Shown here piece by piece: positions 29,504 to 50,569 of a stretch of 64,000 nt of DNA; positions within the stretch are counted from its first letter, which is position 1, and every line of letters starts with the position of its first letter. The stretch is taken from positions 1 to 64,000 of the IMG/VR virus record IMGVR_UViG_3300020120_000133; one strand, given 5' to 3'. The DNA comes from a virus. The notes beneath the pieces were generated by a model that saw only the letters and a program-made list of their open reading frames with translations, did no database searches and was not told the origin of the DNA. The position numbers were made by a program, and so were the translations under genes.

Positions 29504-29527
29504 GCACAGATCAGACGACGCGAAGGC

Positions 29528-29563
29528 ATTAAAATGCCCGCGATCTACGGGAAGATCGCGGGC
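29528..29563 (-). terminator. Rho-independent terminator just upstream of the tape measure start
   Basis: The minus strand reads GCCCGCGATC-ttcccgta-GATCGCGGGC followed by ATTTTAAT. Confidence 0.6.
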
Positions 29564-29629
29564 CGTTGCGTTGCGTCGCGGGGCGATGCGTAGCGACGAG
29601 TTGCGGAGCGAGGCGGTGCGGCGAAAAGA

Positions 29630-30205
29630 TCAGGCCGCGAGAGTTTCGGCCCGGGCCAAGAAATTCTGAACGTCGAACCTTCCGTAGTAACCGTTCTGGC
29701 GAGGCCGGAATCGCCCAAGTCCAATATATTTCCCCGCCGCGATGAGATACCGATGCAGGACGTCCGGCGTGATGATCGGGTCCAGCACGATGATCTCCGC
29801 GTTCGCCTTCCAAGAATGAAAGATCGGGTAGGTTTTCCAGATACGCTTCCCGGAGCCGCGTTTGCCATCGGACGGGAGAAACAGCCGTTCACTCGGGACA
29901 TCGTCGGCCTTGACGCCAAGCATCAGGGGATCGAGGACCGTGACGCCAGCCTCGAAATTCTTCGTATACGTCGCCTTTCCCTTTCCGGGGATTGATTCGG
30001 AAAGGTATTTCGCGATCTCGCTCAGGCAGTTTTTGAGCGCCGTCGGCGGAATGAACGCCTCGCCGTCGGCGTCGCGGTGAATGTGTTCTCGCCACGTTCG
30101 CTTTTCGAATTCGTCGTGCGGTTCGTTCTGGCCCCGGACAGACTGAATCGCCGCTGATTGGCTGTATGGCGTCACGCCAACGATCATGCAGGTGCATCGA
30201 ATCAT
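29630..30205 (-). CDS. Hypothetical protein (191 aa)
   Basis: ATG 30205 behind GGAGAA. Protein-like sequence (…GLGRFRPRQNGYYGRFDV). I do not recognise the family. Confidence 0.5.
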   Translation of the reverse strand: MIRCTCMIVGVTPYSQSAAIQSVRGQNEPHDEFEKRTWREHIHRDADGEAFIPPTALKNCLSEIAKYLSESIPGKGKATYTKNFEAGVTVLDPLMLGVKADDVPSERLFLPSDGKRGSGKRIWKTYPIFHSWKANAEIIVLDPIITPDVLHRYLIAAGKYIGLGRFRPRQNGYYGRFDVQNFLARAETLAA

Positions 30206-30432
30206 CGAAGCTTCTCCGCTGCAAAAGCACCGCCCCGGGTTGCGATCTGCCGGTAAGGACAGGACCAAGGGCGGTGCGGGGTTCCGAAATTTAAGGGGAA
30301 CAGCAGATCGCAAAAGCAGAGTAACCGCGCCGAATCCGAAGTCAAGTGATAAAGTCACCTTTCTTTCGTCTGCAATGACATCCGCCGCACCGGGCAGCGG
30401 CGACCGGCGTATCTGCTTCGAATGGGCCGACC

Positions 30433-31101
30433 ATGAATGATGGACCTCTCTGGGAGGGGATTGAACTTCCTGAATGGAACCTGCAGGTATTTTTCAAGCT
30501 GTACCTCCGCTTCAAAGGCCGCAACCGGACGCGCATTGAAGAGGACGAATTCTGCCGGATGTTGATGTTCCAGGTCGCGGTCCACGCCAACAAACTAGGC
30601 TGGCGTCGCACTTTCGCGCAGCACAACATCGATCCGCAAGATGCCGGCGCCGAAGTCGTGAAGGCCCTGATCCCAAAACTTCTGCGCGTCAAACTGCGCC
30701 ACCCATGCCCACTCGTCCTGATCCAAACCCTCAATCTCGCGATCAACAATGAACTCAAATCCGTCGTCCGCGCCAAGAACCGCAAGAGCGCGATCCCGAC
30801 GCAGAACGAGGCCGAGGACTTCGAACATGCCGACATCAGCTCGGCCTCCCCGACGATCGACGGCCTGTTGCGCGCGATGAAAGACGCCGAAGAGGAAGTC
30901 TGCCCGAACTACCGCGTCGTCAAACTGGCGTATCGTCGGATGTGCGAATCGGTCGTGAGGGGGAAGAATATCCCGACCATAGAGGAAATGCCCCGCAAGA
31001 TTCGGGATAGTATTGTCTTCGATGATTTCGCCCTCGTTGCGTTCCGCCTCGGCACAATCATCGACCGGTACGCGCAGGATCTCGCCAGCGCTGCTTGTTA
31101 A
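30433..31101 (+). CDS. Hypothetical protein (222 aa), possible regulator
   Basis: ORF-track ORF, divergent from 29630..30205 and upstream of the Mor-like gene. Confidence 0.4.
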   Translation: MNDGPLWEGIELPEWNLQVFFKLYLRFKGRNRTRIEEDEFCRMLMFQVAVHANKLGWRRTFAQHNIDPQDAGAEVVKALIPKLLRVKLRHPCPLVLIQTLNLAINNELKSVVRAKNRKSAIPTQNEAEDFEHADISSASPTIDGLLRAMKDAEEEVCPNYRVVKLAYRRMCESVVRGKNIPTIEEMPRKIRDSIVFDDFALVAFRLGTIIDRYAQDLASAAC

Positions 31102-31507
31102 TCTTCTCACCGAACATTTCAAAGAGACGCTGAAGCGCCACGGCCTCGATCCCGACTACGAGACCGCCGCGCGCGAAGCCCTGCAATTCTGCCGGCGCTT
31201 CTACCCTGTCGGCGTCCTGCACGTTCCCGGCCCCGAGATCATCGAACGGGTCGCCAGAGACAACCATATCGCGATGCGGATCCAAAAGGATGCGAGCATC
31301 GACAACGTGCGGAGGTTGGCCGACTGGCACGGGATCAAGAATCGGGACGTCGTCAAGACGACAGCGCGGAAGCTGGGGAGATCGGTTGCGGCCCTTCGTT
31401 CCGGCTGTCAGCAGCAGAAGCCGAGGCGTCGTCGGCGCCGGGGTCGGCTGATGATGCCCCATCGGGTCAAGGATTGCGTCGGGCAGATCGTGATGTTCGG
31501 GGTGTGA
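31013..31507 (+). CDS. Mor-like transcriptional activator (start uncertain)
   Basis: VLHVPGPEIIERVARDNHIAMRIQKDASIDNVRRLADWHGIKNRDVVKTTAR matches the Mor/C pattern (Y.P...RD..I...LA..yg.s...v). The first 26 codons look like junk and overlap the upstream gene. The true start may lie near 31091. Confidence 0.45.
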   Translation: MSSMISPSLRSASAQSSTGTRRISPALLVNLLTEHFKETLKRHGLDPDYETAAREALQFCRRFYPVGVLHVPGPEIIERVARDNHIAMRIQKDASIDNVRRLADWHGIKNRDVVKTTARKLGRSVAALRSGCQQQKPRRRRRRGRLMMPHRVKDCVGQIVMFGV

Positions 31508-31508
31508 T

Positions 31509-31967
31509 TTACAGCTTGGTGATTCTGATAAACGCGCCGGTCTTGTCGCCGTAGGTCTTCTCCAGATACTCGCAAGCGATCTGGGAATCGTCGCGCCACA
31601 CGATCCCGGTCAGAGCGTCCTCCGTTGACCTGCCCAGCTTCAGCGCGTCCGGCTTCTTCGTGTGAAATCGCGGCGCCACCGGTTTCAGTTCCCCGTTGCT
31701 GCGGAAATGTGCCTGGACGCGCGGCATCACGAATCGCATCTCGACGCGCAGCGGACCTTCCAACAATGCGCCGATGTAGTTCTGTTGCGCGAATACCGCG
31801 ACGGTGCGCTTCCAGTCCTTCGCCTTCGGGTTGTCATCGGTGACGATCGCGCGCTTCAGCTTTTCGATGTAGAACGCCCGCTTGCTGCCGCCGGGTTGGG
31901 GAAGGCCCGGGACGAAGAACTCAATCGATTCGGTCGCCTCTGCTGATTGTTCGAACAATGCCGTCAT
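31509..31967 (-). CDS. rusA: RusA-family Holliday junction resolvase
   Basis: FFVPGLPQPGGSKR... and PDALKLGRSTEDALTGIVWRDDSQI match RusA signatures. Confidence 0.8.
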   Translation of the reverse strand: MTALFEQSAEATESIEFFVPGLPQPGGSKRAFYIEKLKRAIVTDDNPKAKDWKRTVAVFAQQNYIGALLEGPLRVEMRFVMPRVQAHFRSNGELKPVAPRFHTKKPDALKLGRSTEDALTGIVWRDDSQIACEYLEKTYGDKTGAFIRITKL

Positions 31968-31975
31968 CGCGTCCT

Positions 31976-33754
31976 CTATTCGAAAAGCTGATCCGCCGCC
32001 TTGACCTCACCGCGCCCGACGGACTCGACGAGTCGCCGGCTGCTGAGTCTCTGGATATAAGCGTCCCGAGAACTACGTTTATAGTTCACCGCTTCATCGA
32101 TCGATTCTCTGGTCACCGATTCGGGATACGCCGCCATGACGAACTCAAGGATCTTGCGCTCGCCTTCCGGAAGCCGCCGCAGCCAGTATTCGCGAAGATC
32201 GGCGCCAGTCGGCAATGGATCGAAGTCGGAACCCAGCGCCGCCACCCCATCGGCAGTCGCGATAATGCTGTCGCCGCGCTGCTCGACGTATCCGCGCTCG
32301 CGAAGTCGCTGAATATAGGCGTCCCTGCTGGATCGTTTGTACGCCGTCAGCACCGTGATCTGATCGCGACCCGCACCTTCAGGATATTGCGCCGCAACCG
32401 TGAGGACGGCGCGCTCGCCCTTGGGCAAGTCGCCCCCGGACTCGCCGGATGATGATGGCTTCCGATACCGGATTGTTTCCGAGAATTCTTTCGCTGGCGC
32501 TGGCGGTCTGGTGAAACTCGGCGCCTGGCGCGTCTGGGGGATCGCTGCGGACGGCACTGGCTTGGCCTTGACCATCTGGCGGATCGAGGCCGCCTCAGTC
32601 AGCATCTTGTCGCGCGTCTCGGCGACCGCTTTCCACTTCGGTTCCAGAACCGCCGTCCACTTCTCCATCGTGCCGTTCCCCATCGACTCGAACTTGTCGG
32701 CCAACTTCTCAAGCCTGCTGATTTGGGAATCCCGGATGACCGGGACCTCGACGCGCTTTTCCTTCGCGGTCGCCGGTGCCGCTGCCGGCTTGGCGATCTG
32801 CTTCTTGAGTTCCGCGATCTGGCGCCTGAGTTCTCTCGGATCGTTCGCTTTCGCCTCTTCTATTACCACGGCGAGTTTCTCTTTGACCGCCTGCAGGTCA
32901 ACATCCGCCCAGCCCTTCCCGCTGATGCGTTTTTGTAGCTGCGGGGGAGCGAACGAATCGAACGTCTTGAACAGAGGAAAGCTGACACGTTTGGGGCCAA
33001 AGCCGACCTCGGGGGACCACATCCATGCCTCGGGACGTTCCAAGTTCGCGAGCGTTTTCATCACTTCGCTGCCAATTTCCGGGTCGCCGTTGCCATCAAT
33101 CCAGGTTTTTATCGCCTCACGGTCTGCTGGATGAACCACGCGAAGCGCTACCAGTGTTTCGCAGCTAGTCAACGTGTCATTGTGAACCTTTTGTGGCCGC
33201 TGTGACGCGAGCAGGCATACTAATCCGAGGCCGCGCCCTTCGCTGAGCAGCCGGTTTGCCCAGTGAAGGCCCACGCCGGCAGCGGTGTCTTTGTCGGACA
33301 TTCCCTTCCATTGCTTCGGCGCGAAATTATGGAACTCGTCGCCGACCAAATACAGTTCGCCCGCATTCGCGGCAAAGAGCGTCGAGGCGAAATCAATCCA
33401 AAATCGCATCATCGCGCCCTGCGTCCAGCCTCGAAGCCCGATGACGCATGGTCGGTTCCCTGAGCTGATCAGTTCCGCGATGTGCTTCCCGCTGTGGTCG
33501 TTAATTGGAACGTCTGTGGCGCGCGACTCTTTGAAGTCGCCGAACATTACCACGGGTAGCCCCGGATCTTTTCCGTTTTCCGCCAGCTTTAGGCCCCACC
33601 AATCGCCCTTAGGATCCAAAATACAAACGCGCTTCTGGACCTGCAGAAGATGCTCGACGATGTAGCGCAGCTTGGATGACTTGCCCGACCCGGTCTTGCC
33701 GAGCATGACCAGATGCTGATCAAGCACTTCCTGCGGAAAAATCAACTTGCTCAT
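31976..33754 (-). CDS. HerA/FtsK-like P-loop ATPase with two C-terminal winged-helix repeats
   Basis: Walker A GKTGSGKS, Walker B LVGDEFHNF, and SQRPQ. The C-terminus carries a tandem repeat, each unit containing YKRSSRDAYIQRL. Confidence 0.65.
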   Translation of the reverse strand: MSKLIFPQEVLDQHLVMLGKTGSGKSSKLRYIVEHLLQVQKRVCILDPKGDWWGLKLAENGKDPGLPVVMFGDFKESRATDVPINDHSGKHIAELISSGNRPCVIGLRGWTQGAMMRFWIDFASTLFAANAGELYLVGDEFHNFAPKQWKGMSDKDTAAGVGLHWANRLLSEGRGLGLVCLLASQRPQKVHNDTLTSCETLVALRVVHPADREAIKTWIDGNGDPEIGSEVMKTLANLERPEAWMWSPEVGFGPKRVSFPLFKTFDSFAPPQLQKRISGKGWADVDLQAVKEKLAVVIEEAKANDPRELRRQIAELKKQIAKPAAAPATAKEKRVEVPVIRDSQISRLEKLADKFESMGNGTMEKWTAVLEPKWKAVAETRDKMLTEAASIRQMVKAKPVPSAAIPQTRQAPSFTRPPAPAKEFSETIRYRKPSSSGESGGDLPKGERAVLTVAAQYPEGAGRDQITVLTAYKRSSRDAYIQRLRERGYVEQRGDSIIATADGVAALGSDFDPLPTGADLREYWLRRLPEGERKILEFVMAAYPESVTRESIDEAVNYKRSSRDAYIQRLSSRRLVESVGRGEVKAADQLFE

Positions 33755-34626
33755 GGTGCGCTCGTTGTAGCAATGTTCGCCGGCGACGTTCCGGGAAATT
33801 CCCTGATGCGTAATCGTTCAGGCCAATCGCTAGGGTCGCCGCTGACTTTGCCGTTGATCGGCATCTGTTTGTGAAAACATCTCACCCCCGCCGACTTGCA
33901 CTGATCGATAATGCTCAACGCGGCGTCGGCATAACCGTCCGCGAATCGGCCGGGGTAGTTGCCGCGCGACTCACAGCCAATAATCACCCACTCGACGTTC
34001 TGTTCGAGATAGCCCCTGATGTTCCCCAAATCTTCCAGCAGCGGCTCAAGGCTCCAGAAATGCACTGCGGCGAGGCAGGCCGATAGGTCCATCGCGCGGT
34101 CCATGCACTTCTGATTCTCGGCACTGACACCCAACCACACGTTGGGGAGTGGAAAGCTTTCGGGGACACGAATCTCATCGCCGAATTTCTCGCTTGCTGC
34201 CAGACACAACACGCCCCGTCGCGTTAGGGTCTCGCAATACTCCTTCATTCGTTCCGCGCGCTTGGTCAACACCTGGAACGTGTGCTGCGGACAAAGCGCC
34301 ATAACGGCAAACACTCTGTCGATGAACTCGAACGGCACTGACTTGTGGAACATGTCCGACATGGAGTTGACGAAGACGCGGCGGGGCTTGCGCCAGCCGA
34401 ACGGGATCTTCAGTGCCGGCTCGGCCGTTCGGACAATGCCGTTGAAGTGACGATCGCCCTTCGGATTCAAGACAGTCAGCCCTGCATATTTCGCCTGTCC
34501 CATTTTTTCGAGGCGGTAGGTTTGCCGAACCGCATAACATGAATCACAGCCCGGGGAGGCGTGTGTGCAGCCCGCGACCGGGTTCCATGTCGCGTCAGTC
34601 CATTCGATATCGCTAGATGTTGCCAT
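33751..34626 (-). CDS. Phage Gp37/Gp68 family protein (DUF5131)
   Basis: IEWTDATWNPVAGCTHASPGCDSCYA signature. Confidence 0.75.
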   Translation of the reverse strand: MATSSDIEWTDATWNPVAGCTHASPGCDSCYAVRQTYRLEKMGQAKYAGLTVLNPKGDRHFNGIVRTAEPALKIPFGWRKPRRVFVNSMSDMFHKSVPFEFIDRVFAVMALCPQHTFQVLTKRAERMKEYCETLTRRGVLCLAASEKFGDEIRVPESFPLPNVWLGVSAENQKCMDRAMDLSACLAAVHFWSLEPLLEDLGNIRGYLEQNVEWVIIGCESRGNYPGRFADGYADAALSIIDQCKSAGVRCFHKQMPINGKVSGDPSDWPERLRIREFPGTSPANIATTSAP

Positions 34627-34644
34627 CGATTTCCTTTGTATCGA

Positions 34645-35082
34645 TCACGCCGCAGCCACGATCAGTTCGTCCGGCACATTGAACCAGCCCTGCCGCCCGC
34701 GCCATGGGAACGGCTTGATGATCCTTGGCGATGCAAGATGCCAAGCCCACCGTCCCGGCGCGTAATTCCCGAACATCCGTTCATCGCTCCCCAATGTCGG
34801 CGCGCAGCTTTCCGTGGGTGACCAGCCGGTGATTTCGACGGTTCCGATCACCATGCCAAGCGGCGGTCTCGAATTGGTCCAAAGCCGGTTCACTAACGGA
34901 TCGGCGAGCCACTGCTTGAATGGTTCCTGCAACCAGAGTCGCCGTTGTTCCGGTGCCCACCTTTTCGAAACGTGGATCGCGACGATGCCGCGATAGTTCG
35001 GCTGCCAACTGCGCGTCTCGTTGCGCTTGGCGCCGATGACGCAAAGCGTCCCCCACGGATCCCAAAGGCTGATGCACTTCAC
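34645..35082 (-). CDS. ASCH domain protein
   Basis: ISLWDPWGTLCVIGAKRNETRSW...GIVAIHVSK pattern. Confidence 0.65.
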   Translation of the reverse strand: MKCISLWDPWGTLCVIGAKRNETRSWQPNYRGIVAIHVSKRWAPEQRRLWLQEPFKQWLADPLVNRLWTNSRPPLGMVIGTVEITGWSPTESCAPTLGSDERMFGNYAPGRWAWHLASPRIIKPFPWRGRQGWFNVPDELIVAAA

Positions 35083-35525
35083 CGCAGCCTCCGTCTTTCC
35101 GCCAGCATCGCATCGGCGATCTCGTAACAGATTCCAGCCGCTTCCGATGTCGGCTTCTCCCTCAGCACCGCCGCCAGCGCGAACGCCGCGAAGTAGTCCC
35201 GCAGCGTCATGGCGTCGGCTTCGGGGTCGATATCGTCGTCGTCATAGCGCAGACTGCGGGGATCGTGGACATTGTTGTCATCACGAACTGGCGCCGCCTC
35301 CGACCATTGGCTGCGGCGATTCTGCTTCTGTCTCTTCGATGAAAGGATGTTCCTGCCGCGCTGCGCCCTCTCAATCATGGCGTCGGTGAATTCCTTGCCG
35401 ATCAGCAGGCGCGTCCAGCCGCTTCGGAGATCGTCCCAATGCAGCCCCAGCGCCTCGATGGTCGCGCGGGTAAAGGCACCGTTACGGCGCAGGCTGTTGA
35501 GAAGTTGGTGAGTCATCACCGGCAT
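35079..35525 (-). CDS. Hypothetical protein (148 aa)
   Basis: ORF-track ORF. Overlapping stop/start codons on both sides. Confidence 0.5.
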   Translation of the reverse strand: MPVMTHQLLNSLRRNGAFTRATIEALGLHWDDLRSGWTRLLIGKEFTDAMIERAQRGRNILSSKRQKQNRRSQWSEAAPVRDDNNVHDPRSLRYDDDDIDPEADAMTLRDYFAAFALAAVLREKPTSEAAGICYEIADAMLAERRRLR

Positions 35526-35932
35526 CAGATTTTTTCATCGATCGCGATCGGATGCAGCCCCGCCAAATCGGACTGGTATTTTTCGATCTCCGGTTTCAGT
35601 CGCGCCATGATCCGGGTTCGATTCTCATGGCACCATTTCTCCCAGCGATCATTGTCGCGCGCGATCTCGTCGGGGACTACTTCGTCGAATAGCCCGTAGT
35701 GCGCGATGGCGTAAAAGCCGCCGCCAGCGCCCTTGCCGGCGCGAATGTGCATGTGGGTCGGCTTTCCCAAGATGCGATAGACGAAGATGGTCTCGCCGCT
35801 TTCGGCGACGTCGCACGGCAGATCGAGGGCATCGGTTTTTCCCCGTGGCCCGATCACCACCCGCAGCAGCATCGGCGTCCGCATCAGGCGAAGCTCTTTT
35901 CCTTCCGCTGGACCGTCTATGAACTTCACCAT
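35525..35932 (-). CDS. Hypothetical protein (135 aa)
   Basis: ATG 35932 behind GAGGA. The track start at 35944 is a TTG. Confidence 0.5.
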   Translation of the reverse strand: MVKFIDGPAEGKELRLMRTPMLLRVVIGPRGKTDALDLPCDVAESGETIFVYRILGKPTHMHIRAGKGAGGGFYAIAHYGLFDEVVPDEIARDNDRWEKWCHENRTRIMARLKPEIEKYQSDLAGLHPIAIDEKI

Positions 35933-35940
35933 ATTGATCC

Positions 35941-36132
35941 TCAACTCCGAACATTCATCGCCGCCAACTGTTCCCGGACCTTAGCCTCGGCTTGCTTCAA
36001 GATCATCCAAGCCTGCATGCGCGTCAGCGGCTCGTGGGTGCGCCTGCGGTATTCAGCCGCGACCTCAGAAATCGTCCGCACCGCATACTTCTGCCCGTTC
36101 GTCCCGGTCCCGATATCAGCCTCTTCCAACAT
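35941..36132 (-). CDS. Small HTH protein resembling sigma-70 region 4
   Basis: LTRMQAWMILKQAEAKVREQL resembles the region-4 recognition helix context. GGAGGA SD upstream. Confidence 0.35.
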   Translation of the reverse strand: MLEEADIGTGTNGQKYAVRTISEVAAEYRRRTHEPLTRMQAWMILKQAEAKVREQLAAMNVRS

Positions 36133-36298
36133 GATTACATCCTCCGTGCGAGCATCCGTGCAAAGAGATGTGAAATGGCATCGACGGACCAGCGCTGGGA
36201 CACTGGTCCGCGATGCCGCCGTAGCGCTTATTCGGGCGTCAACCGATACGTGGAGTCGTCGCCGTGGTCGCCCGAAATCTGAAATCCTTTGTGTTTCA

Positions 36299-36850
36299 TC
36301 ACTCTTCTCCCGAGATGTGTGTTCGCCCGTTCGCCCCGCCGTCGTTGATCATGAGAAGTTCGTCGCAATCCGCGTTGGACTGCTTGCGGCTGGTCTGTTC
36401 GATAATGCGCCATCGCGGCGCCGGGTAGAGATCGCGGATCAGGGGATGGTCGCCGTATCGCACGACAACCCGCGCCTTCTTGAACGATGACAGTTTCAAC
36501 GCCAGCCTGCGGTGATCGTTCTCGCGGAAGAAATGGCGGTACTTCAATCCGGCGTCCACCCAGGGCGCATCGGCATAAATTGCGTTACCCGTGAGGTCCC
36601 GCACTTTCTCCAAGAACGCGAAGCAGTCCATCGACACGAAACTGCATCGCTTCAGGTATCGCCGCCACTGGATCAACCCCTCGACAGCGCCGTGGAAATG
36701 CTTGGCGTTGTCGCCGCCGCCACCGTCATATCGGATCCCGATGCCGGCGGTGAATTCATTGGGCTTCCCCGCGCTGCCGTGCCGCGTCATCCAAGCGCAA
36801 CAGAACGAGTCGATGGCCCATTGGAGATCGGCGTCGGCGTCGGATGCGAT
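36299..36850 (-). pseudogene. Dam-like (D12 class) N6-adenine methyltransferase lacking its N-terminal SAM-binding region
   Basis: AIYADAPW (DPPY-like), then FFRENDHRRLALKL...VVVRYGDHPLIRDLY...CDELLMIN, aligns by eye to roughly the C-terminal two-thirds of Dam. No FxGxG in this frame. The upstream part of the frame is junk overlapping the Dcm fragment. Confidence 0.55.
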
Positions 36851-36851
36851 T

Positions 36852-42963: not shown

Positions 42964-43311
42964 TCACACCGCCTCCAAGATCGACAGGACGTGCAAGGTC
43001 GCGTCCAACGACGGCTTCTTCGACGTCACCATCCGCCGCAGCGCCTTGATCGCTTCCTCGATCGCGATCCTCTCCCTCGATTCCATCATTTCGATCCCCC
43101 TCGCCTTATGTGGCACCACCTGGAGATATCGCTTCGTCGCCAGCGCGCACACATGCTCGAAGACCGAGACCTTCGAGATTCCGATCGTCTCGGACAACTC
43201 CACGTAGGTCGGCGACATCCCGGTGCCGCGCTGGAAGCGCCGAATCTCGTTCAGCACTTCCTGCTGTCGCGGTGTCAAGGAGTCGGGAGTATTGATCGTC
43301 GATGATCGCAT
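42964..43311 (-). CDS. LexA DNA-binding-domain protein without the S24 peptidase domain
   Basis: LTPRQQEVLNEIRRFQRGTGMSPTYVELSETIGISKVSVFEHVCALATKRYL...ARGIEM parallels the LexA N-terminal wHTH. The protein is only 115 aa. Confidence 0.65.
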   Translation of the reverse strand: MRSSTINTPDSLTPRQQEVLNEIRRFQRGTGMSPTYVELSETIGISKVSVFEHVCALATKRYLQVVPHKARGIEMMESRERIAIEEAIKALRRMVTSKKPSLDATLHVLSILEAV

Positions 43312-43319: not shown

Positions 43320-44069
43320 TTATGAAATATGTGGTTTGGCGATTTCGAGGCAGCGCGCGACCTTGTCGAGATCGAACCTGGAATCGTCGGATGATCGCAC
43401 CCGCGTCTCCATATCGATCCAGATCGGGGTCTCACCAGCCGCCGCGCCGATCAGCGGAATCTGCTGTTCGAGATTATCGGGGCCGAGACCGCCAGCGTAG
43501 CCGTGATAGCAACAGGTCGTGTCGTCGTCCATGTACTGCGGCTTCGGCCATTCAGTCGGCAAAATTCCGGCACCACCCGAGATATCGAATAGTGGGACGG
43601 CATCGACGGTCTGATCTCCGTTGTTCTCGCCGTAGAGCGATTCGAGATGCGCGTTCCCCTTGGCCCCGTCGATTTGGAAGATGTATTGGCGCTTGCCGAG
43701 CGAAAGCATCGCATTGAAGAATTCCGGGGCCTTACATGGCGTGCGCTCGGCGTGAAAGTTCAGTTGGATTCTCTGAAACTCCGGGGCCAACAACAATTCC
43801 GGAATATGTACGTCACCGACCAGCAATTCCCGAACCCATCGCCCGCAGAGATGCAGCGAAAGCGAAATGTTGCCGACCCGCCTCGCGACTCCGATCAATT
43901 CAGCGATCCAAGGCGCGGATGGAAATCGGAAACTGCCGGCATCGGGGCCGACGCTGGCAGAGGCCAGAATGCCCCACTCGACGAACCTGTATTGCCGCGA
44001 CAGCTTCAGCAGGTCATTCGGGATAATGCTGTCGTCGGCGCCCGTGATTGTCACTCTGTCCAGTCGCAT
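43320..44069 (-). CDS. TrpF-like (phosphoribosylanthranilate-isomerase-like) TIM-barrel protein
   Basis: VEWGIL, SLHLCG, RIQLNF, LFDISGGAGILP..WP and GYAGGLGPDNL resemble the PRAI phosphate-binding elements. Start taken at ATG 44069. Confidence 0.5.
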   Translation of the reverse strand: MRLDRVTITGADDSIIPNDLLKLSRQYRFVEWGILASASVGPDAGSFRFPSAPWIAELIGVARRVGNISLSLHLCGRWVRELLVGDVHIPELLLAPEFQRIQLNFHAERTPCKAPEFFNAMLSLGKRQYIFQIDGAKGNAHLESLYGENNGDQTVDAVPLFDISGGAGILPTEWPKPQYMDDDTTCCYHGYAGGLGPDNLEQQIPLIGAAAGETPIWIDMETRVRSSDDSRFDLDKVARCLEIAKPHIS

Positions 44070-44136
44070 GATCGTTTCCAATCCGATAAATGTGGGCCGA
44101 ATCGGTGGGTGAGCGATCCGGCCCCGTGGAGGGGGA

Positions 44137-44325
44137 CTAAGTTGATTTGGTTGATGCCCGGTTCTTGCGCTCGATCGCGTCGAACACTTCCTTGCGGTGG
44201 ACTTGGACGTCATTCGGCGCCCGGATTCCGACGCGAACGTTGCCGCCCTTGATCCCGAAGATCATGACCTCAACGTTCTTCCCGATCATGATGGACTCAT
44301 CTACCGCTCTGCGGACAACAAGCAT
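44137..44325 (-). CDS. csrA: Carbon storage regulator CsrA homologue
   Basis: MLVVRRAVDESIMIGKNVEVMIFGIKGGNVRVGIRAPNDVQVHRKEVFDAI aligns along its full length with E. coli CsrA ([48 protein letters not shown]). Confidence 0.9.
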   Translation of the reverse strand: MLVVRRAVDESIMIGKNVEVMIFGIKGGNVRVGIRAPNDVQVHRKEVFDAIERKNRASTKST

Positions 44326-44344: not shown

Positions 44345-44809
44345 TTAGGCGATCACAGTTTTCTTTCGGCGATGCTGACGTCCGAAGCGGATGATCTCCG
44401 ATTCGAATCGCGCGACCTTGACCCCGTAAAGTGGTGCCAGCATCGCCGCCTCATCCAATCGCGGGCACTTCTTTCCGGCCTCGTAGTTCTTGACCGTGGA
44501 TTCGCTTTTCCCGATGCGTTTGGCCATTTTTCGGCAACTCAGGCCCAACGCCTTCCGCGATTTCCTGAAGAGGTTCGGTTTCGGACCACCAACCAACCCT
44601 GGAAGATTCCCATTCCGCTCGACTTCTGGCCGAATTATGCCTGCCCGGATCAGCTTCGCCGGATGGATGCGCCAGATCAGGCCGAGGCGAGACAAAAGCA
44701 CTTGCAGCATCTTCGTTTTGCATCGGCCCTCCGATTGCGCGAATCGGCCGAGACAATCATCGAGTTCTTGGCTGAGGTTCACGCCGAATCTGACGGGTTT
44801 CGTGTTCAC
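44345..44809 (-). CDS. RHH (CopG-like) plus XRE-HTH fusion regulator
   Basis: N-terminal VRFGVNLSQELDDCLGRFA..., C-terminal LGLSCRKMAKRIGKSESTVKNYEAG. Confidence 0.6.
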   Translation of the reverse strand: MNTKPVRFGVNLSQELDDCLGRFAQSEGRCKTKMLQVLLSRLGLIWRIHPAKLIRAGIIRPEVERNGNLPGLVGGPKPNLFRKSRKALGLSCRKMAKRIGKSESTVKNYEAGKKCPRLDEAAMLAPLYGVKVARFESEIIRFGRQHRRKKTVIA

Positions 44810-45096
44810 GCCGCTTTCGCCCTAGCCTTCCTCGCGGACTCCAGTATCGCTCGCTCAATCGCCTCAAAGCTGCATTCGTAGGCCGATGCCATCGAGTCAA
44901 CGGCGTCGAGCGGCGGTATCGATCTGCCGGACTCTCGGTTTTGAAGCGCCGTCTCCGTGATGCCGAGACGATCCGCCATTTGTCTTTGGGTCATCCCGAG
45001 TTCTGCGCGACGAGACTTCCAGAAGTTCTCGGTTCCCCTTGGCCTTCTGGTTTTACCAATCCGAGTTCGATTGCTCTCTCTGGATTTTCTCGCCAT
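44806..45096 (-). CDS. XRE-family HTH protein (HTH half of a split RHH-XRE paralogue)
   Basis: LGMTQRQMADRLGITETALQNRESG. Overlaps 44991..45230 in another frame. Confidence 0.55.
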   Translation of the reverse strand: MARKSRESNRTRIGKTRRPRGTENFWKSRRAELGMTQRQMADRLGITETALQNRESGRSIPPLDAVDSMASAYECSFEAIERAILESARKARAKAA

Positions 45097-45230
45097 ATTC
45101 GCACCACACGGGCCATGACAGTCTCAATCAGATTTGTCTTCGATCGCCGCTCGATGGCACCAAGTTCACGAGTCGCTTTATTGACCTCGTAAGAAAAAGA
45201 AACTCCGAAGCGCCTTCGGTCACTTGCCAT
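44991..45230 (-). CDS. RHH-like protein (RHH half of a split RHH-XRE paralogue)
   Basis: RRFGVSFSYEVNKATRELG...RVVRIWRENPERAIELGLVKPE parallels residues 6-75 of the 44345..44809 product. Confidence 0.5.
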   Translation of the reverse strand: MASDRRRFGVSFSYEVNKATRELGAIERRSKTNLIETVMARVVRIWRENPERAIELGLVKPEGQGEPRTSGSLVAQNSG

Positions 45231-45354
45231 CTTTAAGTGACTTTATCGCCAACTAGGCACCACTTAAAGGGGAAAATCCCAAGTTGGACTTGTCTATGTC
45301 ATGGTCGGTGCTGTAAGTCTTAGGGTGGCAAGTAACTTAACGCGGGAAGAAAAA
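45231..45354. promoter_or_regulatory. Divergent promoter/operator region (genetic-switch candidate)
   Basis: AT-richer 124 bp between divergent regulator genes. Palindromes AAGTGACTT (45235-45243), CAAGTTGGACTTG (45280-45292) and AAGTAACTT (45330-45338). A 9-bp inverted repeat CTTTAAGTG/CACTTAAAG at 45231-45239 and 45261-45269. Confidence 0.5.
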
Positions 45355-45813
45355 ATGAATAAAGGTGTCGAAATCGATGTGAACAAGCTGGCGCGAATCC
45401 TAGACGACCGGCTGATGACGCATCAGGCGCTGGCTGTCGGCATCCATTCGAATCGGGAGACGGTGAGCCGGATTCTTGGCGGCAGCAGGCCCTCCCGCGC
45501 CGTCCTGTCCAGGATCATCGCGTTCCTCGGCATCAAGAAAGAAGCCCTTCTCAGCACCGATGTCGTGGACATCTCGATCCCGCGCGAGACCTACGACGGC
45601 TTGGTGCATCTGATGAAGTCTGATGAGACCCCGGCGAAGACGGTTCAGGAATATCTTCGGCAGCACGTCGCCAAAGAGGCGATCCGCGTCAGACACGCCG
45701 AAACCGGGAGTTCCGGGAAATCATCGGCATCTCGTACTCGCGCGCCTGATCCAAGGCGCGATGGTAGGTCGCCATCGTCGCGGCGACAGAAACCAAGATC
45801 ATTCCGGCCTTGA
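45355..45813 (+). CDS. XRE-family HTH regulator (Cro-like position)
   Basis: ATG 45355 behind GGGAAG. LMTHQALAVGIHSNRETVSRIL. The last ~40 codons are low-complexity, so the real functional C-terminus is unclear. Confidence 0.55.
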   Translation: MNKGVEIDVNKLARILDDRLMTHQALAVGIHSNRETVSRILGGSRPSRAVLSRIIAFLGIKKEALLSTDVVDISIPRETYDGLVHLMKSDETPAKTVQEYLRQHVAKEAIRVRHAETGSSGKSSASRTRAPDPRRDGRSPSSRRQKPRSFRP

Positions 45814-45967
45814 GGTCGATATCACAGCCGACGTCGAGAATCGCGAGCGGCACCATGAAGACGATCCACTTGCGCAGCCCAACGACGATGTCCCAACGTT
45901 CCAGGAATTCTTTCGGTGCCGTCATTCCGACCCCTTCCAACGTGACCGAACGGGAGGCTAACGCCAT
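45689..45967 (-). CDS. Possible small two-TM protein
   Basis: WIVFMVPLAILDVG and GMILVSVAATMATY are hydrophobic segments. It conflicts with the tails of both plus-strand neighbours. Confidence 0.25.
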   Translation of the reverse strand: MALASRSVTLEGVGMTAPKEFLERWDIVVGLRKWIVFMVPLAILDVGCDIDLKAGMILVSVAATMATYHRALDQAREYEMPMISRNSRFRRV

Positions 45968-47690
45968 CCGCGCGAGAGTTCAAGAGAATTGCCATTTGCC
46001 CGAGCCGATTGGATTGCGTCCCCAATTCGGAGCGGCGGAATCTAAGGGAAAGACTGACCCGGTCGCAAGCACAAAATTAAGAAAATGGGGAAGGCGGGAA
46101 ATTCAGGTCGTCGCGGTCGCGCTGATCTCGCTCGTCGTGATCTTGCCACGATCCATTTCGATCGTTCGATCCCACTCGCCCTGTACCGACGATTTCTACC
46201 ATATCGAGCGTGGCGCGCTGTTCTGGTCACGACATCTGGGGTCAACGGATCTGAACGATCCACCGCTCGGCGAGGCCATCGGGGCGATCCCGGTTTCGGC
46301 ATCGGACTGGCTGTTGCTGCTGCCGCGATTCCGCAAGTTTGTGCTGTCGCGAGATCAGGCCCAACTCATCGTCGCGATCTGGAAATCGATCATCTTCGCC
46401 CCCTTGGTCGCGATCGTCTTTTGCTGGCTTCGCGGGTTGTACGGCGTCGGTGCCGGATGGTTCTGTGCCGCGCTGATCGTCTTCGATCCCAACGTCACGG
46501 CGCATCTTCATCTCGGCGCCATCGACATGCTCGGGGCCGAGGTCGCCGTTGTGGCGCTCTACGCGGTGTCGCGATGTCTGGACCGGCCGACGACGATCCG
46601 GCTGCTGCTGGCTTCCACTGCCATCGCGGCTGCGGTTCTGACGAAGCACACGAACATCTTGGTGCCGGTCGTCGCGGTCGGGTATGGGGCGATGCGTCGC
46701 GTTCCCTTCGCGGTCATCGTGAAGTTGCTGGCGCCGATCCCGGTGCTGATGTGGGCGCTGCTATTGTTCGACGTCTCGGTCCCGACGGTGCCGCGAGATT
46801 GGCGCGAAGCTGGCTGGGCGGCGCCGACACTGTTGCGGCATCGCGTCCCCTGCGGCCTCTACATCGGTTCGTTGTGGCAGGCGCGCTCCCATGTCGCCAG
46901 CGGGCATCCCGGTTTCCTCAACGGCGAGATCCGCGACAACGGCTGGTGGTTCTACTACTTCGCGGTCGCGGCGTACAAAGTGCCGGTCGCGACGCTGCTG
47001 TTGATCGGGGTCGCGGCGCCTTCGTTCCTGTGGAAGCCGATGGGGCGCGCCGAGTTAGAGTTGATCCTGCCGGCGATCGTGTTCGCGGCCGCGCTGTCGA
47101 TGTCACCGATCAACATCGGGTTCCGGCATTTTCTGCCGGCGTATCTGTTCGTCCTGATGCTGTCGGCGCGGATCATTGCGATCATTGGAATCCCCGGCGC
47201 CGTGAAGGCGATGGCCTGGATCGGTCTCGCCGCCGGCGCGGTCCATGCCGCCAGTTTCCATCCCGACTATCTCGGCTACATCAACTGGCCGCGCGACAAG
47301 GTTTGGTTGCGCATCGGCGACAGCAATCTGGACTGGGGACAGTCGCTCAAAGAGGTCAAGGCTTGGCTGGAAGCGCATCCGCAGAACCGGCCCGTCTCCG
47401 TCGGCGCGTTCTACGGCGGCGAACCGACGCAGCGGGAGGTCCGCAGATATATCGGCAAATCGGTCGATGCCCGGCTGATCTGGGATCCGCCGCCCCAGCG
47501 CGGCTTGCTGATCGCGTCGCCGACGTGGGTTGCGGGAATCTACGGGTTCGGAGATCGCTATGCCGAGTTCAGGTCGCGCGATCCCGACGCCGTGATCGGT
47601 CGCTGCATGTTGGTCTACGATTTGGATCGGATCAGAGAAGAATCGAGTCCAGCCCACACGCAATCGTCATCCCCGATTTCCCAACCCTGA
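45888..47690 (+). CDS. GT-C fold glycosyltransferase (GT39/ArnT/PMT-like), polytopic membrane protein
   Basis: More than 10 hydrophobic segments. First-loop DDFYH...LNDPPLGEAIGAIPV resembles the ArnT/PMT family. The start is uncertain (ATG 45888 or TTG 46014). The track start at 45810 is a TTG. Confidence 0.65.
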   Translation: MSQRSRNSFGAVIPTPSNVTEREANAIRARVQENCHLPEPIGLRPQFGAAESKGKTDPVASTKLRKWGRREIQVVAVALISLVVILPRSISIVRSHSPCTDDFYHIERGALFWSRHLGSTDLNDPPLGEAIGAIPVSASDWLLLLPRFRKFVLSRDQAQLIVAIWKSIIFAPLVAIVFCWLRGLYGVGAGWFCAALIVFDPNVTAHLHLGAIDMLGAEVAVVALYAVSRCLDRPTTIRLLLASTAIAAAVLTKHTNILVPVVAVGYGAMRRVPFAVIVKLLAPIPVLMWALLLFDVSVPTVPRDWREAGWAAPTLLRHRVPCGLYIGSLWQARSHVASGHPGFLNGEIRDNGWWFYYFAVAAYKVPVATLLLIGVAAPSFLWKPMGRAELELILPAIVFAAALSMSPINIGFRHFLPAYLFVLMLSARIIAIIGIPGAVKAMAWIGLAAGAVHAASFHPDYLGYINWPRDKVWLRIGDSNLDWGQSLKEVKAWLEAHPQNRPVSVGAFYGGEPTQREVRRYIGKSVDARLIWDPPPQRGLLIASPTWVAGIYGFGDRYAEFRSRDPDAVIGRCMLVYDLDRIREESSPAHTQSSSPISQP

Positions 47691-47895
47691 TGGTCACTTC
47701 CCGGTCGTGCCACGCCGAGGGGAAACGGTCGCTGCGCAGCCGCCATATTTCTCGTTCGACCGATGGGATTTTGCTTCTGGAAGCCAGAAAGATATCGGCG
47801 GTGTATTCAAGCTCGTGAAGCAGCGCCCCGACCGCCTGTTTCGAGACCGTCGCCCGAACCGTCGCGCCCGTTTTTACGGCACCCATCAACCGCAT
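47632..47895 (-). CDS. Candidate 87-aa ORF overlapping the 3' ends of the BCS1-like and GT39-like genes
   Basis: Starts at the ATG of GCGTCTGATG, the same stop/start box used at 21497 and 53429. By hand count its third-position GC is higher than that of either overlapping frame. The overlapping tails of the BCS1-like and GT39-like ORFs look like junk. Confidence 0.3.
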   Translation of the reverse strand: MRLMGAVKTGATVRATVSKQAVGALLHELEYTADIFLASRSKIPSVEREIWRLRSDRFPSAWHDREVTIRVGKSGMTIACGLDSILL

Positions 47896-49042
47896 CAGAC
47901 GCTTCGCGCATCGACAGCAGCCGTTCTTGGATCGCCGCCATGCTGCGCCCGGCCATTTCCTTCGCGAATCCAGCGGCGTCGCCGTTGACCCCCGCGCCCA
48001 TGAATCTTCGGTACATCGCGGCTGCTTGTTCCTCTGTGGCATCGTCGATCAGCAGGTGGACGTCGGCGCGTCCCGGTCGGACCAGTGCGCCGTCCAGCTT
48101 GTCGCGATGGTTCGTCGTCATCATGAGGATTTGGCCCTCCTTAGCGACGACGCCGTCGATGGCGTTGAGTAAGCCGCTGAAGGTGAGGTCGTGATTGCTG
48201 TCGCGCCCCTTCCATGCGGCATCGACATCTTCGATGAGAAGGACGCTGTTCGATGGAGTCCGAATCAGGCATTCGATGAGATCGTTGTCGCTCTTGAAAC
48301 TCGACAGGCTCAGGACGCACAGATTCCTTCCCAACTCACTCGCCATCGCGTGCGCCAGCGAACTCTTGCCGTTTCCCGGCGGTCCATGAAGCAGGTAGCC
48401 GCGACGCCACGGGATGCCACGGTCGAAGTACCATGCCTTCGATCCGATAAACCGAACGGCGTCCGCGATCAGCGCCTCGGCCTTCCCGCCGGGCAGCACA
48501 ACCGAGGCGACGCGGCGGATCGGCTTACGATCAGCCAACTGCCAGTTCGGCCCCGACGGCACCCACACTTCCACGACCGAACCATTCTTGAACTTCGCGA
48601 ATCGATAGGCTTCTTCAAGCAGTTCCTCGAATATTTTCTTGTCGCGCCCGAGGCATTGCAGCGTGATCAATTCACGGTAGCCGTTCTGCATCTGCAGTTC
48701 TTTTCTCTCGACCCAAACGACGATGCGGCGGCCCCGGAAGCGCAGCCAGCAGAAACTGATCGGGAACAGTGAGAAGTCCGGTTTCACCGGGCCAGTTCCG
48801 GGACCATCAGGAAAGACCGCGTTGATCCCCATCCATCGGGATTTCGAATTCGCGGCCAGCCATTGCTTCACCCACGCGAACGCGCAGTCGCTGTTGTCGA
48901 TTTCCGCCGTCAACAGCAGCCGATTCTTGATCCAGCGGAGGATCGCTTTCGGCGCATCTCGACACGCGGCGGCGCACCAACCAGCGGCGACGACCGCGAG
49001 GCCACCGGAGAAGAAGGGGTTGTGGAGAAGTTCCGAGATCAT
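47807..49042 (-). CDS. BCS1-like AAA+ ATPase with an N-terminal membrane anchor
   Basis: GYLLHGPPGNGKSS (Walker A), VLLIEDVD (Walker B), MTTNHRDKLDGALVRPGRADV. Hydrophobic N-terminus. ATGA overlap with the PDF stop. Confidence 0.8.
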   Translation of the reverse strand: MISELLHNPFFSGGLAVVAAGWCAAACRDAPKAILRWIKNRLLLTAEIDNSDCAFAWVKQWLAANSKSRWMGINAVFPDGPGTGPVKPDFSLFPISFCWLRFRGRRIVVWVERKELQMQNGYRELITLQCLGRDKKIFEELLEEAYRFAKFKNGSVVEVWVPSGPNWQLADRKPIRRVASVVLPGGKAEALIADAVRFIGSKAWYFDRGIPWRRGYLLHGPPGNGKSSLAHAMASELGRNLCVLSLSSFKSDNDLIECLIRTPSNSVLLIEDVDAAWKGRDSNHDLTFSGLLNAIDGVVAKEGQILMMTTNHRDKLDGALVRPGRADVHLLIDDATEEQAAAMYRRFMGAGVNGDAAGFAKEMAGRSMAAIQERLLSMREASDAVDGCRKNGRDGSGDGLETGGRGAASRA

Positions 49043-49635
49043 TTGATGCCGACGGCGCGTTGCAGTTCCCAAGCCTCGCCGACGCGACAAATTCCGGAAA
49101 GATGGTCGATCTCATGCTGGACCACTCGCGCGGACCAAGCGACGAAGGTGAGTTGCGTCAGCATCCAATCGAGGCCGCGATATTGCACCGTGATCCGATT
49201 GAACCGCTCGACGTTGGCGCGGACGCCGGGGAACGACAAGCAGCCCTCGACGGAAACGTTGGTCTCGGCGCTGTGATCGATGATCTCGGGGTTGAGCATG
49301 AATAAGCCGTTCGTCCGGTTCGGTGCCACGAAGACGGCGCGGCGCAGCCAATCGATTTGATTCCCCGACAGCCCGACGCCGCCAGCCGAATACTCACAAG
49401 CCGTCCGCAGCAGCCGCAGCTTGGCGACATCCCTTAAATCTTCTTCGGTGAACTCCGCAGCCACGGCTTTCAGGGACGGATGCCCGAACTTCACGATCTT
49501 CGTTGTCGCGGCACCGCAGCATCCTTTGGCTTTGGTGCCGCTGCCGCAGGGACACGGCGAATTTCTGTCATACCCGCGAAATAACTGCACCGGACGATCT
49601 AACGGCAGGATTGCAGATTTTTGATCGGTGTTCAT
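49039..49635 (-). CDS. def: Peptide deformylase with an N-terminal SEC-C metal-binding motif
   Basis: GVGLSGNQI, EGCLSFPG and QHEIDHL are the three PDF motifs. CPCGSGTKAKGCCG is a SEC-C motif. The ATG overlaps the T-frame stop (TGATG), with AGAGGA upstream. Confidence 0.8.
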   Translation of the reverse strand: MNTDQKSAILPLDRPVQLFRGYDRNSPCPCGSGTKAKGCCGAATTKIVKFGHPSLKAVAAEFTEEDLRDVAKLRLLRTACEYSAGGVGLSGNQIDWLRRAVFVAPNRTNGLFMLNPEIIDHSAETNVSVEGCLSFPGVRANVERFNRITVQYRGLDWMLTQLTFVAWSARVVQHEIDHLSGICRVGEAWELQRAVGIK

Positions 49636-50569
49636 CACATCCTCTTGGACTCCCGCTTCGCCTTCTCGATCGCGGCGGCGCGGCGCTTATCCTCGATCGC
49701 CGCGCGCTTCTGCGTCGCGACCCGATCGAGTAACCACATCAACTCCAACGTCTCCCAGCGCTGCAGTTCCGACATCACGTTCAGCCGGCAATGCTGATCC
49801 AGAATCGCGACGGCCTGTTCCATCTGAAGCGTCCCGAAAAGGCTCGCCGATTCTCCGCTTCTGAGGTCCGACGCCGCCAGCCGGTACAGTTTGACCGCCG
49901 TGAAGTTCGCCGGGTGCAGGCCGAACGTCGCGGGATACAGCAGATATTTCGGACATCGTCGGCATGGCGGATCGCGCCTCGGAACGATCGCTTTGTGCGC
50001 GGTGATGCAGCTTTTGCAGTTCCCGGTGACGCTCTCGGACGTGTTGAAGACCGGGTTCAGGCCGAACTCGTAGCCGGCCCAGTCGATGAGTTTTTTACGC
50101 GGGTCTCCCAATCGGCGGCTTGGAAGCGGCCGATGTCCTGACAGATCGTCCAAACGAAGTTGCTAAACGGCTTGCAGTGATCGAGGACGAAAAGGATGTT
50201 CTCTCTCGCCTCGCTCGACTTCCCGGAAACCGACGGGTCCATCGGAACCTCGGCGTCCATGCCGCCGCATTTCGCGACTTCGTCGGCATCCAGCGGCACC
50301 ATTGATCGCAGTTTCGCGAACGTCACCTTCTCACAACGAATCACGGCTTGCAGGCAAACTTCCTGCACGACGGCGAGTTGGAACGCGGCCGGGGACTCTT
50401 CGCCCTCGCGACGCCCGCGCAATTTGATGAGGTCCTGGACCTCGCGCATCGCGTCGGGTCCGAGAAACTGCAGCCAGACCTTAAACCCAGTGGTGTCGTC
50501 GGCGTTCTCTGGATACCAGAACAGTCGCGTCAGGGCGCCGGCTTTCGGCTTCATGTTGCTGAGGTTCAT
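49635..50569 (-). CDS. Tail assembly chaperone GT fusion made by a -1 programmed frameshift
   Basis: The T frame (49635..50153) has no plausible own start and overlaps the end of G by 97 nt. The slippery A_AAA_AAC is in the correct phase. Located directly downstream of the tail tube gene. Confidence 0.65.
50057..50569 (-). CDS. Tail assembly chaperone G (170 aa)
   Basis: AAAGGAA SD. Position after the tail tube gene. C-terminal ...DWETRVKNSS contains the slip site. Confidence 0.65.
   Translation of the reverse strand: MNLSNMKPKAGALTRLFWYPENADDTTGFKVWLQFLGPDAMREVQDLIKLRGRREGEESPAAFQLAVVQEVCLQAVIRCEKVTFAKLRSMVPLDADEVAKCGGMDAEVPMDPSVSGKSSEARENILFVLDHCKPFSNFVWTICQDIGRFQAADWETRVKNSSTGPATSSA
50090..50096 (-). 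promoter_or_regulatory. Slippery heptamer A_AAA_AAC (-1 ribosomal frameshift site)
   Basis: G frame reads GTA AAA AAC. The -1 frame continues AAA AAA CTC ATC GAC, giving KKLID..., which is exactly the T-frame ORF. Confidence 0.65.

Follow-up and report, generated by a model that had tools for sequence, protein, structure and literature searches.

A native early region probably separates the tail chaperone genes from the tape measure gene in an uncultured clade of long-tailed phages

The 64-kb window examined in this study (positions 1 to 64,000 of the IMG/VR virus record IMGVR_UViG_3300020120_000133) is part of a 101-kb contig from a metagenome assembly and has a G+C content of ~61%. It belongs to a siphophage in which the tail chaperone genes, G and its frameshifted product GT, lie 20.1 kb and ~30 genes away from the gene for the tape measure protein (TMP), and the DNA between them (the block) holds only regulatory, lysogeny and recombination genes. 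It is highly probable that these 20 kb are the phage's own region for immunity, lysogeny and early recombination and not foreign DNA, and that the arrangement is a native architecture found across the clade. Read on one strand, the genome would run from late unit 1 (head, neck, tube and G/GT) through an immunity switch and early operon to late unit 2 (TMP, distal tail, hub, J-like protein and fibres). The initial annotation of this window had reported a separation of about 20 kb, and both the gene identities and the order that it gave hold. Of the three readings that it offered, the unusual native architecture is borne out, as six of six informative relatives share the interrupted order, whereas a nested integrative element is not supported and no new kind of mobile element is indicated. 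In view of the G+C content, gene calling was self-trained, and annotation relied on Pfam and PHROGs; feature coordinates are collected in Table 1.

Late unit 1 is encoded on the minus strand and begins from the right with orphan head-side genes and a 1024-aa protein, followed by the protease/scaffold, capsid, neck, tube, G and T genes. The products of G and T have no match in Pfam or PHROG, and structure prediction of G gave an unusable model (pLDDT 45). A slippery heptamer, A_AAA_AAC, is present at 50090–50096 in the correct phase for a -1 shift, 40 nt before the G stop codon, and GT is a G-T fusion made through this predicted programmed frameshift. Homologs of both G and T (27–42% identity) occur in the relatives described below, seven of which have a slippery heptamer in phase with a -1 extension of 153–178 codons (GGGAAAC in locus L060). 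Judged by homology and frameshift signal, the G/T genes of the relatives are real chaperone pairs that do not stand next to a TMP gene.

The TMP of the window is 1020 aa long, is rich in alanine (14%), glycine (13%) and leucine (10%), and has a C-terminal AETGNPEAFVPL motif. There was no Pfam match, and only the C-terminus matched PHROG families (phrog_1292, 3.8e-9; phrog_12798, 2.6e-5). A profile of its family, which has ~1,000 representatives that are mostly 1,000–2,000 aa long, matched the solved tape-measure chains 25vf_5 (4e-9) and 8rk3_A (9e-5), and by these profile matches the protein is a genuine tape measure.

Relatives were sought as homologs of the tube on metagenomic contigs (39–61% identity), and the gene context was read wherever the contig was long enough. 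Six relatives from independent assemblies, with tubes 39–47% identical to that of the window, were informative, whilst loci L007, L040 and L041 end too soon. The order head, neck, tube, G, T is kept in all six, and in none of them does a TMP gene follow GT. What follows T is a DnaB and an SNF2 helicase in L003; a PDDEXK nuclease, ERF, dCTP deaminase and RNR in L004/L005; a PDDEXK nuclease, dCMP deaminase, RNR and DnaE in L006; methyltransferases, a beta clamp, HTH, CsrA, HTH_17 and integrase in L008/L009; a divergent HTH pair, AAA_24 and helicases in the P0016 contig; and PDDEXK, HTH_17, ERF and RNR in L060. Within 9 kb of the tube gene, none of the six has an open reading frame (ORF) of more than ~800 aa, and the ORFs exceeding 600 aa encode AAA_25 or ATP-cone/RNR proteins or are unannotated. 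The temperate relative L008 carries, downstream of GT and beside an HTH_17 ORF and an integrase, homologs of the window's 43320–44213 protein (43% identity), of CsrA (47%) and of an 87-aa ORF, so that three genes of the window recur after GT in L008, two from the block and the 87-aa ORF from the end of late unit 1. The product of 36299–36883 likewise has a homolog of 35% identity beside DnaB in L003.

More distant phages present a different picture. Directly after the chaperone, 14 outgroup loci in IMG/VR (tube identity ≤33%) have an ORF of 560–1,900 aa, which in one of them was confirmed as a TMP (5.6e-22), and the cultured phages Xp15 and AXL1 keep the order tube, chaperone, TMP (AXL1: PMC9206674). 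Since the break is common to all six informative relatives and the outgroups are canonical, the separation of GT from TMP is an old, shared trait of the clade and not an event private to this genome. The ancestral adjacency of tube, G/GT and TMP would have been broken once, before the clade diversified, and kept in distant relatives. The initial annotation had proposed a search for an empty site, meaning a relative in which T or the BCS1-like ATPase gene is followed directly by TMP; there was none among the six informative relatives, and GT stands beside TMP only in outgroups with a tube identity of ≤33%.

In most tailed phages the frameshifted pair is found immediately upstream of the tape measure gene, and in the exceptions, which include KL1, HK97, SPP1, psiM2 and c2, one tail gene comes between the two (PMC3483164, citing Xu, Hendrix and Duda, 2004). 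The window shares with the lambda/HK97-type order a pair of overlapping ORFs behind the major tail gene, linked through a -1 frameshift at XXXYYYZ, and the position of the distal tail, hub and J-like genes after TMP. It departs from that order in the ~30 genes that come between GT and TMP, and the relatives likewise have at least 9–10 kb of non-structural genes after GT. The PF18906 tube family links the window to Pamexvirus (AXL1, PaMx74), Xanthomonas phage Xp15 and Vibrio and Serratia siphophages, but the tubes of these cultured phages are only 23–28% identical to that of the window and their tube, chaperone and TMP genes are in canonical order. AXL1 (PMC9206674) resembles the window in three other respects: its hub is of the BR0599 type, a very large minor head protein is encoded beside the portal, and a small reverse operon breaks into its morphogenesis module. 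Cluster S (Marvin-like) mycobacteriophages are likewise known to have tail genes outside the main structural operon, with two minor tail protein genes situated in the right arm (PMC9872701). The genes concerned there encode minor tail proteins, whereas here the break falls between GT and TMP and is filled by a whole early region. The adjacency of chaperone and TMP is retained in Cluster S mycobacteriophages. A limited search of the literature turned up no lineage described as having its entire early region between GT and TMP.

Composition, one of the checks proposed in the initial annotation, offers no sign that the block was inserted. Tetranucleotide usage in the block correlates with that of the tail flank at 0.95 and of the head flank at 0.92, sliding windows within the block score 0.94–0.955 as in the rest of the window, and relative synonymous codon usage correlates with the flanks at 0.97–0.98. 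G+C at third codon positions is slightly lower in the block (0.75 vs 0.78–0.80), and lower values are usual in early compared with structural genes. These results bear on the proposal that a self-contained integrative element, satellite or second prophage was inserted between GT and TMP of a phage of canonical order, a proposal prompted by the integrase, the weakly Xis-like HTH_17 protein and the HTH switch in the block, by its lack of structural genes (upheld here, with no structural-family match inside the block), by the absence of a late box before any of its genes and by a terminator at its TMP edge. A second tyrosine recombinase elsewhere in the window (6672–7862), unrelated to the block integrase, could also be taken to favour it. 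The initial annotation had further pointed to a copy of CGTCTGAT at each edge of the block; the 7–8-nt copies are literally present, but they form no att site, being the late boxes of the flanking late genes, and the box precedes at least nine other late genes. No direct repeats of ≥14 nt were found at the two edges by the search for att-type repeats that had been suggested. The window outside the block lacks a switch and a recombination module of its own, temperate L008 carries homologs of block genes in the corresponding place, and the break after GT is common to six relatives with no empty site among them. Of the features expected of an integrative element, the block therefore has a recombinase, and att repeats, an empty site and a distinct composition (a supportive sign more than a defining one) are missing. 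The observations that the initial annotation had named as refuting an insertion are largely those made here. Insertion of such an element is accordingly regarded as very unlikely.

Within the block, a plus-strand operon on the repressor side (45301–47690) is convergent with late unit 1 and is followed by a divergent intergenic switch region, which contains a perfect 9-bp inverted repeat (CTTTAAGTG at 45231–45239 and CACTTAAAG at 45261–45269) and a minus-strand terminator-like hairpin at 45205–45219. The inverted repeat is a plausible candidate for the operator. The integrase gene is situated in the middle of the block and not at an edge; its probable start is ATG 41148, so that the divergent intergenic region measures 260 nt (40885–41147) and has a hairpin at 41016–41041. 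Several names in the initial annotation need revision: no match was found for a ‘Mor-like activator’, the proteins called ‘RHH’ match HTH_3, the ‘annealing’ partner of the exonuclease could not be verified, as phrog_3657 has no known function, and ‘Xis-like’ rests on a weak HTH_17 match (E = 0.01). Outside the block the window carries a beta clamp, DUF3846, a beta-helix protein, the second recombinase and orphans, and Pfam and PHROG scans there identified no immunity switch and no recombination genes. The block is the sole recognisable early and lysogeny module within the window. The outer genome had been credited with its own recombinase and early operon (1–9109); the recombinase is there, but no switch or recombination module was identified in the window outside the block.

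Late unit 1 of this phage closes with three further genes: those for a peptide deformylase (PDF) and a BCS1-like AAA ATPase, and the small, conserved 87-aa ORF. Their translation is coupled to the end of the GT gene, and they are probably expressed late together with the structural genes. Homologs of PDF and of the BCS1-like ATPase were not found at the corresponding position in the relatives.

The other junction, between the early region and late unit 2, has a compact layout. The strong terminator previously noted on the tape-measure side is there: a hairpin at 29536–29563, with 11 bp of which 8 are G-C pairs and a T-rich tail (ATTTTAAT), is the best-scoring terminator-like site in 29–48.5 kb. 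It is followed by CGTCTGA at 29511–29517, 7 nt before the TMP ATG. A module homologous to late unit 2 was reached through the hub protein on L042, a 137-kb contig of 69% G+C, with identities to the window of 30–31% for TMP, 34–38% for the DUF2460-like proteins, 40% for the hub and 38–42% for the J-like protein. The L042 TMP gene has a 209-aa gene and a divergent gene upstream, with no tube or GT, and the 60 nt before its ATG repeat the layout of the window, with a G+C-rich hairpin ending in a T-rich tail, followed by GGCGTCTA and a gap of 6–7 nt. As both phages have this hairpin, box and ATG layout, TMP would appear to head a unit insulated from upstream transcription in each of them. In the window, the terminator before TMP would keep early transcription out of late unit 2.

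The source of the window is a metagenome assembly, and an assembly chimera or a rearrangement private to this contig could in principle create such an order. This is extremely improbable, given that six independent assemblies (from JGI, ENA and Logan samples) show the junction of GT with early genes, that the terminator, box and TMP layout recurs in L042 and that composition is uniform across both junctions.

The motif that precedes TMP recurs before many genes of both late units. CGTCTGA as such is no more frequent in the window than expected by chance (11 found vs 11.7 expected), with 10 of the 11 copies on the coding strand. Eleven of 20 copies of CGTCTG fall in the 4.5% of the sequence that lies ≤45 nt ahead of a minus-strand start, far more than chance would place there (p about 2e-10), and all 11 of these precede genes that belong to the presumed late class, namely those for TMP, DUF2460-like proteins, hub, J-like protein, protease, tube and capsid and a lone beta-helix gene. 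No block gene is preceded by the box, in agreement with the initial annotation, and the likely explanation is that block genes are early and not that they are foreign. The box, CGTCT(G/A)(A) on the coding strand, comes directly after an upstream stop codon or contains the stop, and its distance to the start falls into two classes, 6–10 nt with no Shine-Dalgarno sequence and 17–25 nt with GGAG in between. The copy at 47895–47901 abuts the ATG of the 87-aa ORF (CGTCTGATG). This copy was at one point considered a chance coding sequence within the BCS1 ORF, an explanation that was dropped, as the copy abuts the start of a conserved gene.

Beyond the window, 24 instances of the box were found in eight relative loci, giving 37 with the window's 13, and it was seen in L003, L004, L007, L008, L040 and L042, in a clade whose G+C content spans 54–69%. 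In L042 it is positioned 6–8 nt before the starts of the TMP, DUF2460, hub and J-like genes. In L008 a box precedes the hub gene, which is the first gene of a divergent unit, and translational coupling therefore cannot explain it. No conserved sequence flanks the box across the relatives. The box would be an autonomous signal of late initiation, most simply a short -10-type late promoter. No sigma-like protein was found in the Pfam and PHROG scans of the window.

In L008, at 1–3245, the hub gene and its downstream neighbour (homologs of 17522–18463 and 17112–17522) form a small inverted cassette, divergent from the cassette of terminator, tube, G and GT. The hub ATG of this cassette has a late box 6 nt ahead of it. 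With its hub cassette inverted, L008 has an even more scrambled tail gene order than the window.

If the box is such a signal, late unit 2 would carry its own point of initiation, a CGTCT(G/A)-type box 6–10 nt before the ATG, and a single late factor could switch on both late units together, given that many genes of the two units share the box. G and GT, made from late unit 1 through the conserved -1 frameshift, would act in trans on TMP made from late unit 2. A further step may be proposed tentatively, and we consider it rather unlikely as it stands: that the box is a minimal late promoter, or another autonomous signal, read by a phage-specific factor and giving leaderless or very short-leader transcripts, and that possession of its own copy by each late gene or cassette relaxes selection for a contiguous tail operon, allowing the adjacency of GT and TMP to break and further scrambling to follow, for example the inverted hub cassette of L008. 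Were this so, the clade would be a natural experiment showing that chaperones and TMP need not be encoded together, and it would present a new logic of late transcription in siphophages.

The nearest analogue in logic may be T4, where the late structural genes lie in several separated clusters, and each cluster uses a very short late promoter motif of the -10 type (TATAAATA). The clade has a Gp23-like capsid, an S77 (gp21-like) protease and a short motif just upstream of scattered late genes, and this motif is, as in T4, short, without a -35 element, placed just ahead of many late genes and missing from early ones. The window phage differs in being a siphophage with a different motif, and scans of the window identified no gp55- or gp33-like factor. 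The likeness would be in how the system may work and not in family membership.

Several observations weigh against a native, clade-wide architecture. The full order late, early, late is seen within one genome in the window only, the relatives showing each of the two junctions separately, and on the TMP side the evidence is from one relative, L042, for which the stretch upstream of TMP amounts to only 1.3 kb. Little of the block's sequence recurs in the early regions of the relatives, so that it is position that is conserved and not content. Another early or replication module may also sit in the other 37 kb of the source contig.

A refinement of the native reading is that the split is old but that the lysogeny part of the block (~39.7–47.6 kb, comprising the switch, CsrA, LexA-DBD protein, integrase and GT39) was gained by modular exchange at an existing boundary of late and early genes in a lineage that is otherwise lytic. 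The lytic-looking L004, L006 and L060 run from GT almost directly to the PDDEXK nuclease and then to ERF and RNR, whilst in the window and in L008 a switch, CsrA and an integrase intervene before the recombination genes, and the P0016 contig has an HTH switch at the corresponding boundary. No compositional step occurs at ~39.7 kb, though, and no boundary repeats were found; the difference may also reflect loss in the lytic members instead of gain in the temperate ones. Such an exchange is a fair possibility, but we lean somewhat against it.

The native reading has consequences for annotation. The order major tail, G/GT, TMP is among the most dependable synteny rules of long-tailed phages and is routinely used in naming genes, and the present clade suggests that the adjacency of chaperone and TMP is a convention of gene order and not a mechanistic need. 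Annotation based on synteny, and tools that draw the boundaries of prophages or nested elements, would misread such genomes, for which the nested-element reading of this window is an example. The clade would also be a natural system in which to study how two separated late units are co-regulated, with the late box as a concrete candidate.

The lineage is sparsely represented in the databases. Megablast of the block against GenBank phages gave no match, and neither did tblastn of the capsid, hub, GT and J-like proteins against 50,697 GenBank phage records or of the tube against plasmids. Single-sequence locus scans in IMG/VR with the tube and with TMP returned nothing close, a word-indexed homolog search yielded no relatives for TMP and just one for the hub (L042), and TMP and hub alignments searched in IMG/VR and JGI metagenomes found nothing. 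The tube alignment, searched against GTDB genomes and metagenomes, recovered distant or very short loci only, with no prophage relative and no host that could be named. As the searches of phage records with the block and structural proteins found no match, the lineage is, by sequence comparison, one without a cultured relative and very poorly sampled.

Table 1. Coordinates of features in the 64-kb window, listed from late unit 1 towards late unit 2 (+, plus strand; -, minus strand).
Feature	Coordinates	Strand	Evidence or remark
S77 protease/scaffold	56238–57929	-	Pfam
Gp23-like capsid	54875–56326	-	Pfam
Major tail tube, PF18906 Phage_tube_2	50677–51714	-	Pfam 1.1e-35; clade homologs 39–61% identity
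G	50057–50569	-	ORF overlapping T, directly after tube; conserved in relatives
T frame	open 50162–49635	-	-1 frame relative to G
PDF, N-terminal SEC-C motif	49039–49638	-	Pfam; start overlaps T stop
BCS1-like AAA ATPase, BCS1_N and AAA domains	47807–49090	-	Pfam
87-aa ORF	47632–47895	-	L008 homolog, 41% identity, E = 2e-15; ATG abuts CGTCTGA box 47895–47901
GT39/PMT_2-like membrane glycosyltransferase	45810–47690	+	PMT_2 below gathering cut-off
HTH protein, repressor-side operon	45301–45813	+	Pfam HTH_31/HTH_26 below gathering cut-offs
Divergent intergenic switch region, ~200 nt	45097–45300		Sequence
HTH_3 protein, start of early operon	44806–45096	-	Pfam
HTH_3 protein	44345–44809	-	Pfam
CsrA	44137–44325	-	Pfam 2.7e-20
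Conserved 244–297-aa protein	43320–44213	-	Homolog in L008
LexA-DBD protein	42964–43311	-	Pfam
HTH_17 ‘Xis-like’ ORF	42706–42963	-	Weak HTH_17, E = 0.01
Tyrosine integrase	40914–42398	+	phrog_1 1.9e-18; phrog_216 2.7e-10; weak Pfam 0.0086
Early recombination/DNA-metabolism genes, including DUF4326 and R2K ATP-grasp	31509–40884	-	Pfam and PHROG
PD-(D/E)XK nuclease	38369–39709	-	Pfam and PHROG
phrog_3657 protein	37125–38372	-	PHROG
Methyltransferase-like fragment	36299–37108	-	Pfam and PHROG
DUF5131	33751–34626	-	Pfam and PHROG
HerA-like ATPase	31976–33754	-	Pfam and PHROG
RusA	31509–31967	-	Pfam and PHROG
Two orphan ORFs	30433–31101, 31013–31507	+	No Pfam match
phrog_4652 protein, last early gene	29630–30358	-	PHROG 2.7e-14; no Pfam match
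Boundary of early region and late unit 2	29504–29629	-	Repeats, terminator hairpin, late box
TMP, first gene of late unit 2	26441–29503	-	PHROG, composition, profile search
Rest of late unit 2	9106–26415	-	Pfam and PHROG; homologous module in L042
Extra genes: HNH-like ORF	25957–26415	-	Pfam/PHROG scan
Extra genes: N6/N4 DNA methylase	22221–23324	-	Pfam 3.8e-27
DUF2460-like proteins	21497–22213, 19436–20785	-	Pfam below gathering cut-off
Hub	17522–18463	-	Pfam
J-like protein	12033–17102	-	Pfam
Fibre-like genes	9106–11926	-	Pfam and PHROG
Late box copies	5881–5887, 17112–17118, 18471–18477, 20794–20800, 22221–22227, 24269–24275		
Late box copies, continued	25946–25952, 29511–29517, 47895–47901, 51713–51719, 56208–56214, 57940–57946		

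The distal tail module is of a type known from RcGTA: DUF2460, hub (Gp84_N/BR0599) and Phage-tail_3 J-like proteins follow TMP in the same order in both the window and L042, with weak to moderate Pfam matches. The likeness has its limits, as DUF2460 and BR0599 fall below the Pfam gathering cut-offs and Gp84_N, at 26.6 bits, just reaches its cut-off of 26. The window also differs in having ~4.2 kb of extra genes (22221–26415) between TMP and the DUF2460-like genes, which are near-adjacent in L042, where TMP lies directly upstream of them. Besides the DNA methylase and HNH-like genes, these include a 553-aa orphan and two small orphans. Late expression of this group is suggested by the late boxes ahead of two of the extra genes (starts 25938 and 24261) and of the first DUF2460-like gene after them (22213).

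Between the last early gene and the terminator hairpin, 66 nt (29556–29621) consist of degenerate G+C-rich repeats with a 10–20-nt period and CGCNN-type pentamers on the minus strand. An arrangement like that of lambda Q, PR' and tR' was considered for the last early gene and the terminator, and no support for it was found. A structure prediction of the last early gene (29630–30187) was unusable (pLDDT 38), and PDB sequence searches with the phrog_4652 protein, the phrog_3657 protein and the product of 30433–31101 gave insignificant matches only. In late unit 1, most of the head-side genes at 52181–64000 on the minus strand are without a Pfam or PHROG family, including those for the 1024-aa protein and a 409-aa protein upstream of the protease. 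Scans of the window returned no Rfam families and no tRNA genes. A DnaN-like beta sliding clamp is common to the window (943–1800) and L008 (8813–9910), with 36% identity, and the CsrA homolog of L008 is encoded at 13522–13878.

A strong terminator-like hairpin on the minus strand at 50626–50648, with 10 bp of which 8 are G-C pairs and followed by TTTTTT, stands between the tube gene and G, and may lower the expression of the chaperones relative to that of the tube.

Near the left end of the window, a plus-strand cluster at 5925–9109 lies between two minus-strand late genes, beta-helix (4642–5862) and fibre-like (9106–11926), and consists of the second tyrosine recombinase (Pfam 1.9e-19), small orphan ORFs and a 416-aa orphan. 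No att-like repeats were found around this cluster (5.9–9.1 kb), and a PDB sequence search with the product of 7859–9109 gave only insignificant matches. The second recombinase may serve in dimer resolution or inversion, or may belong to a small nested element.

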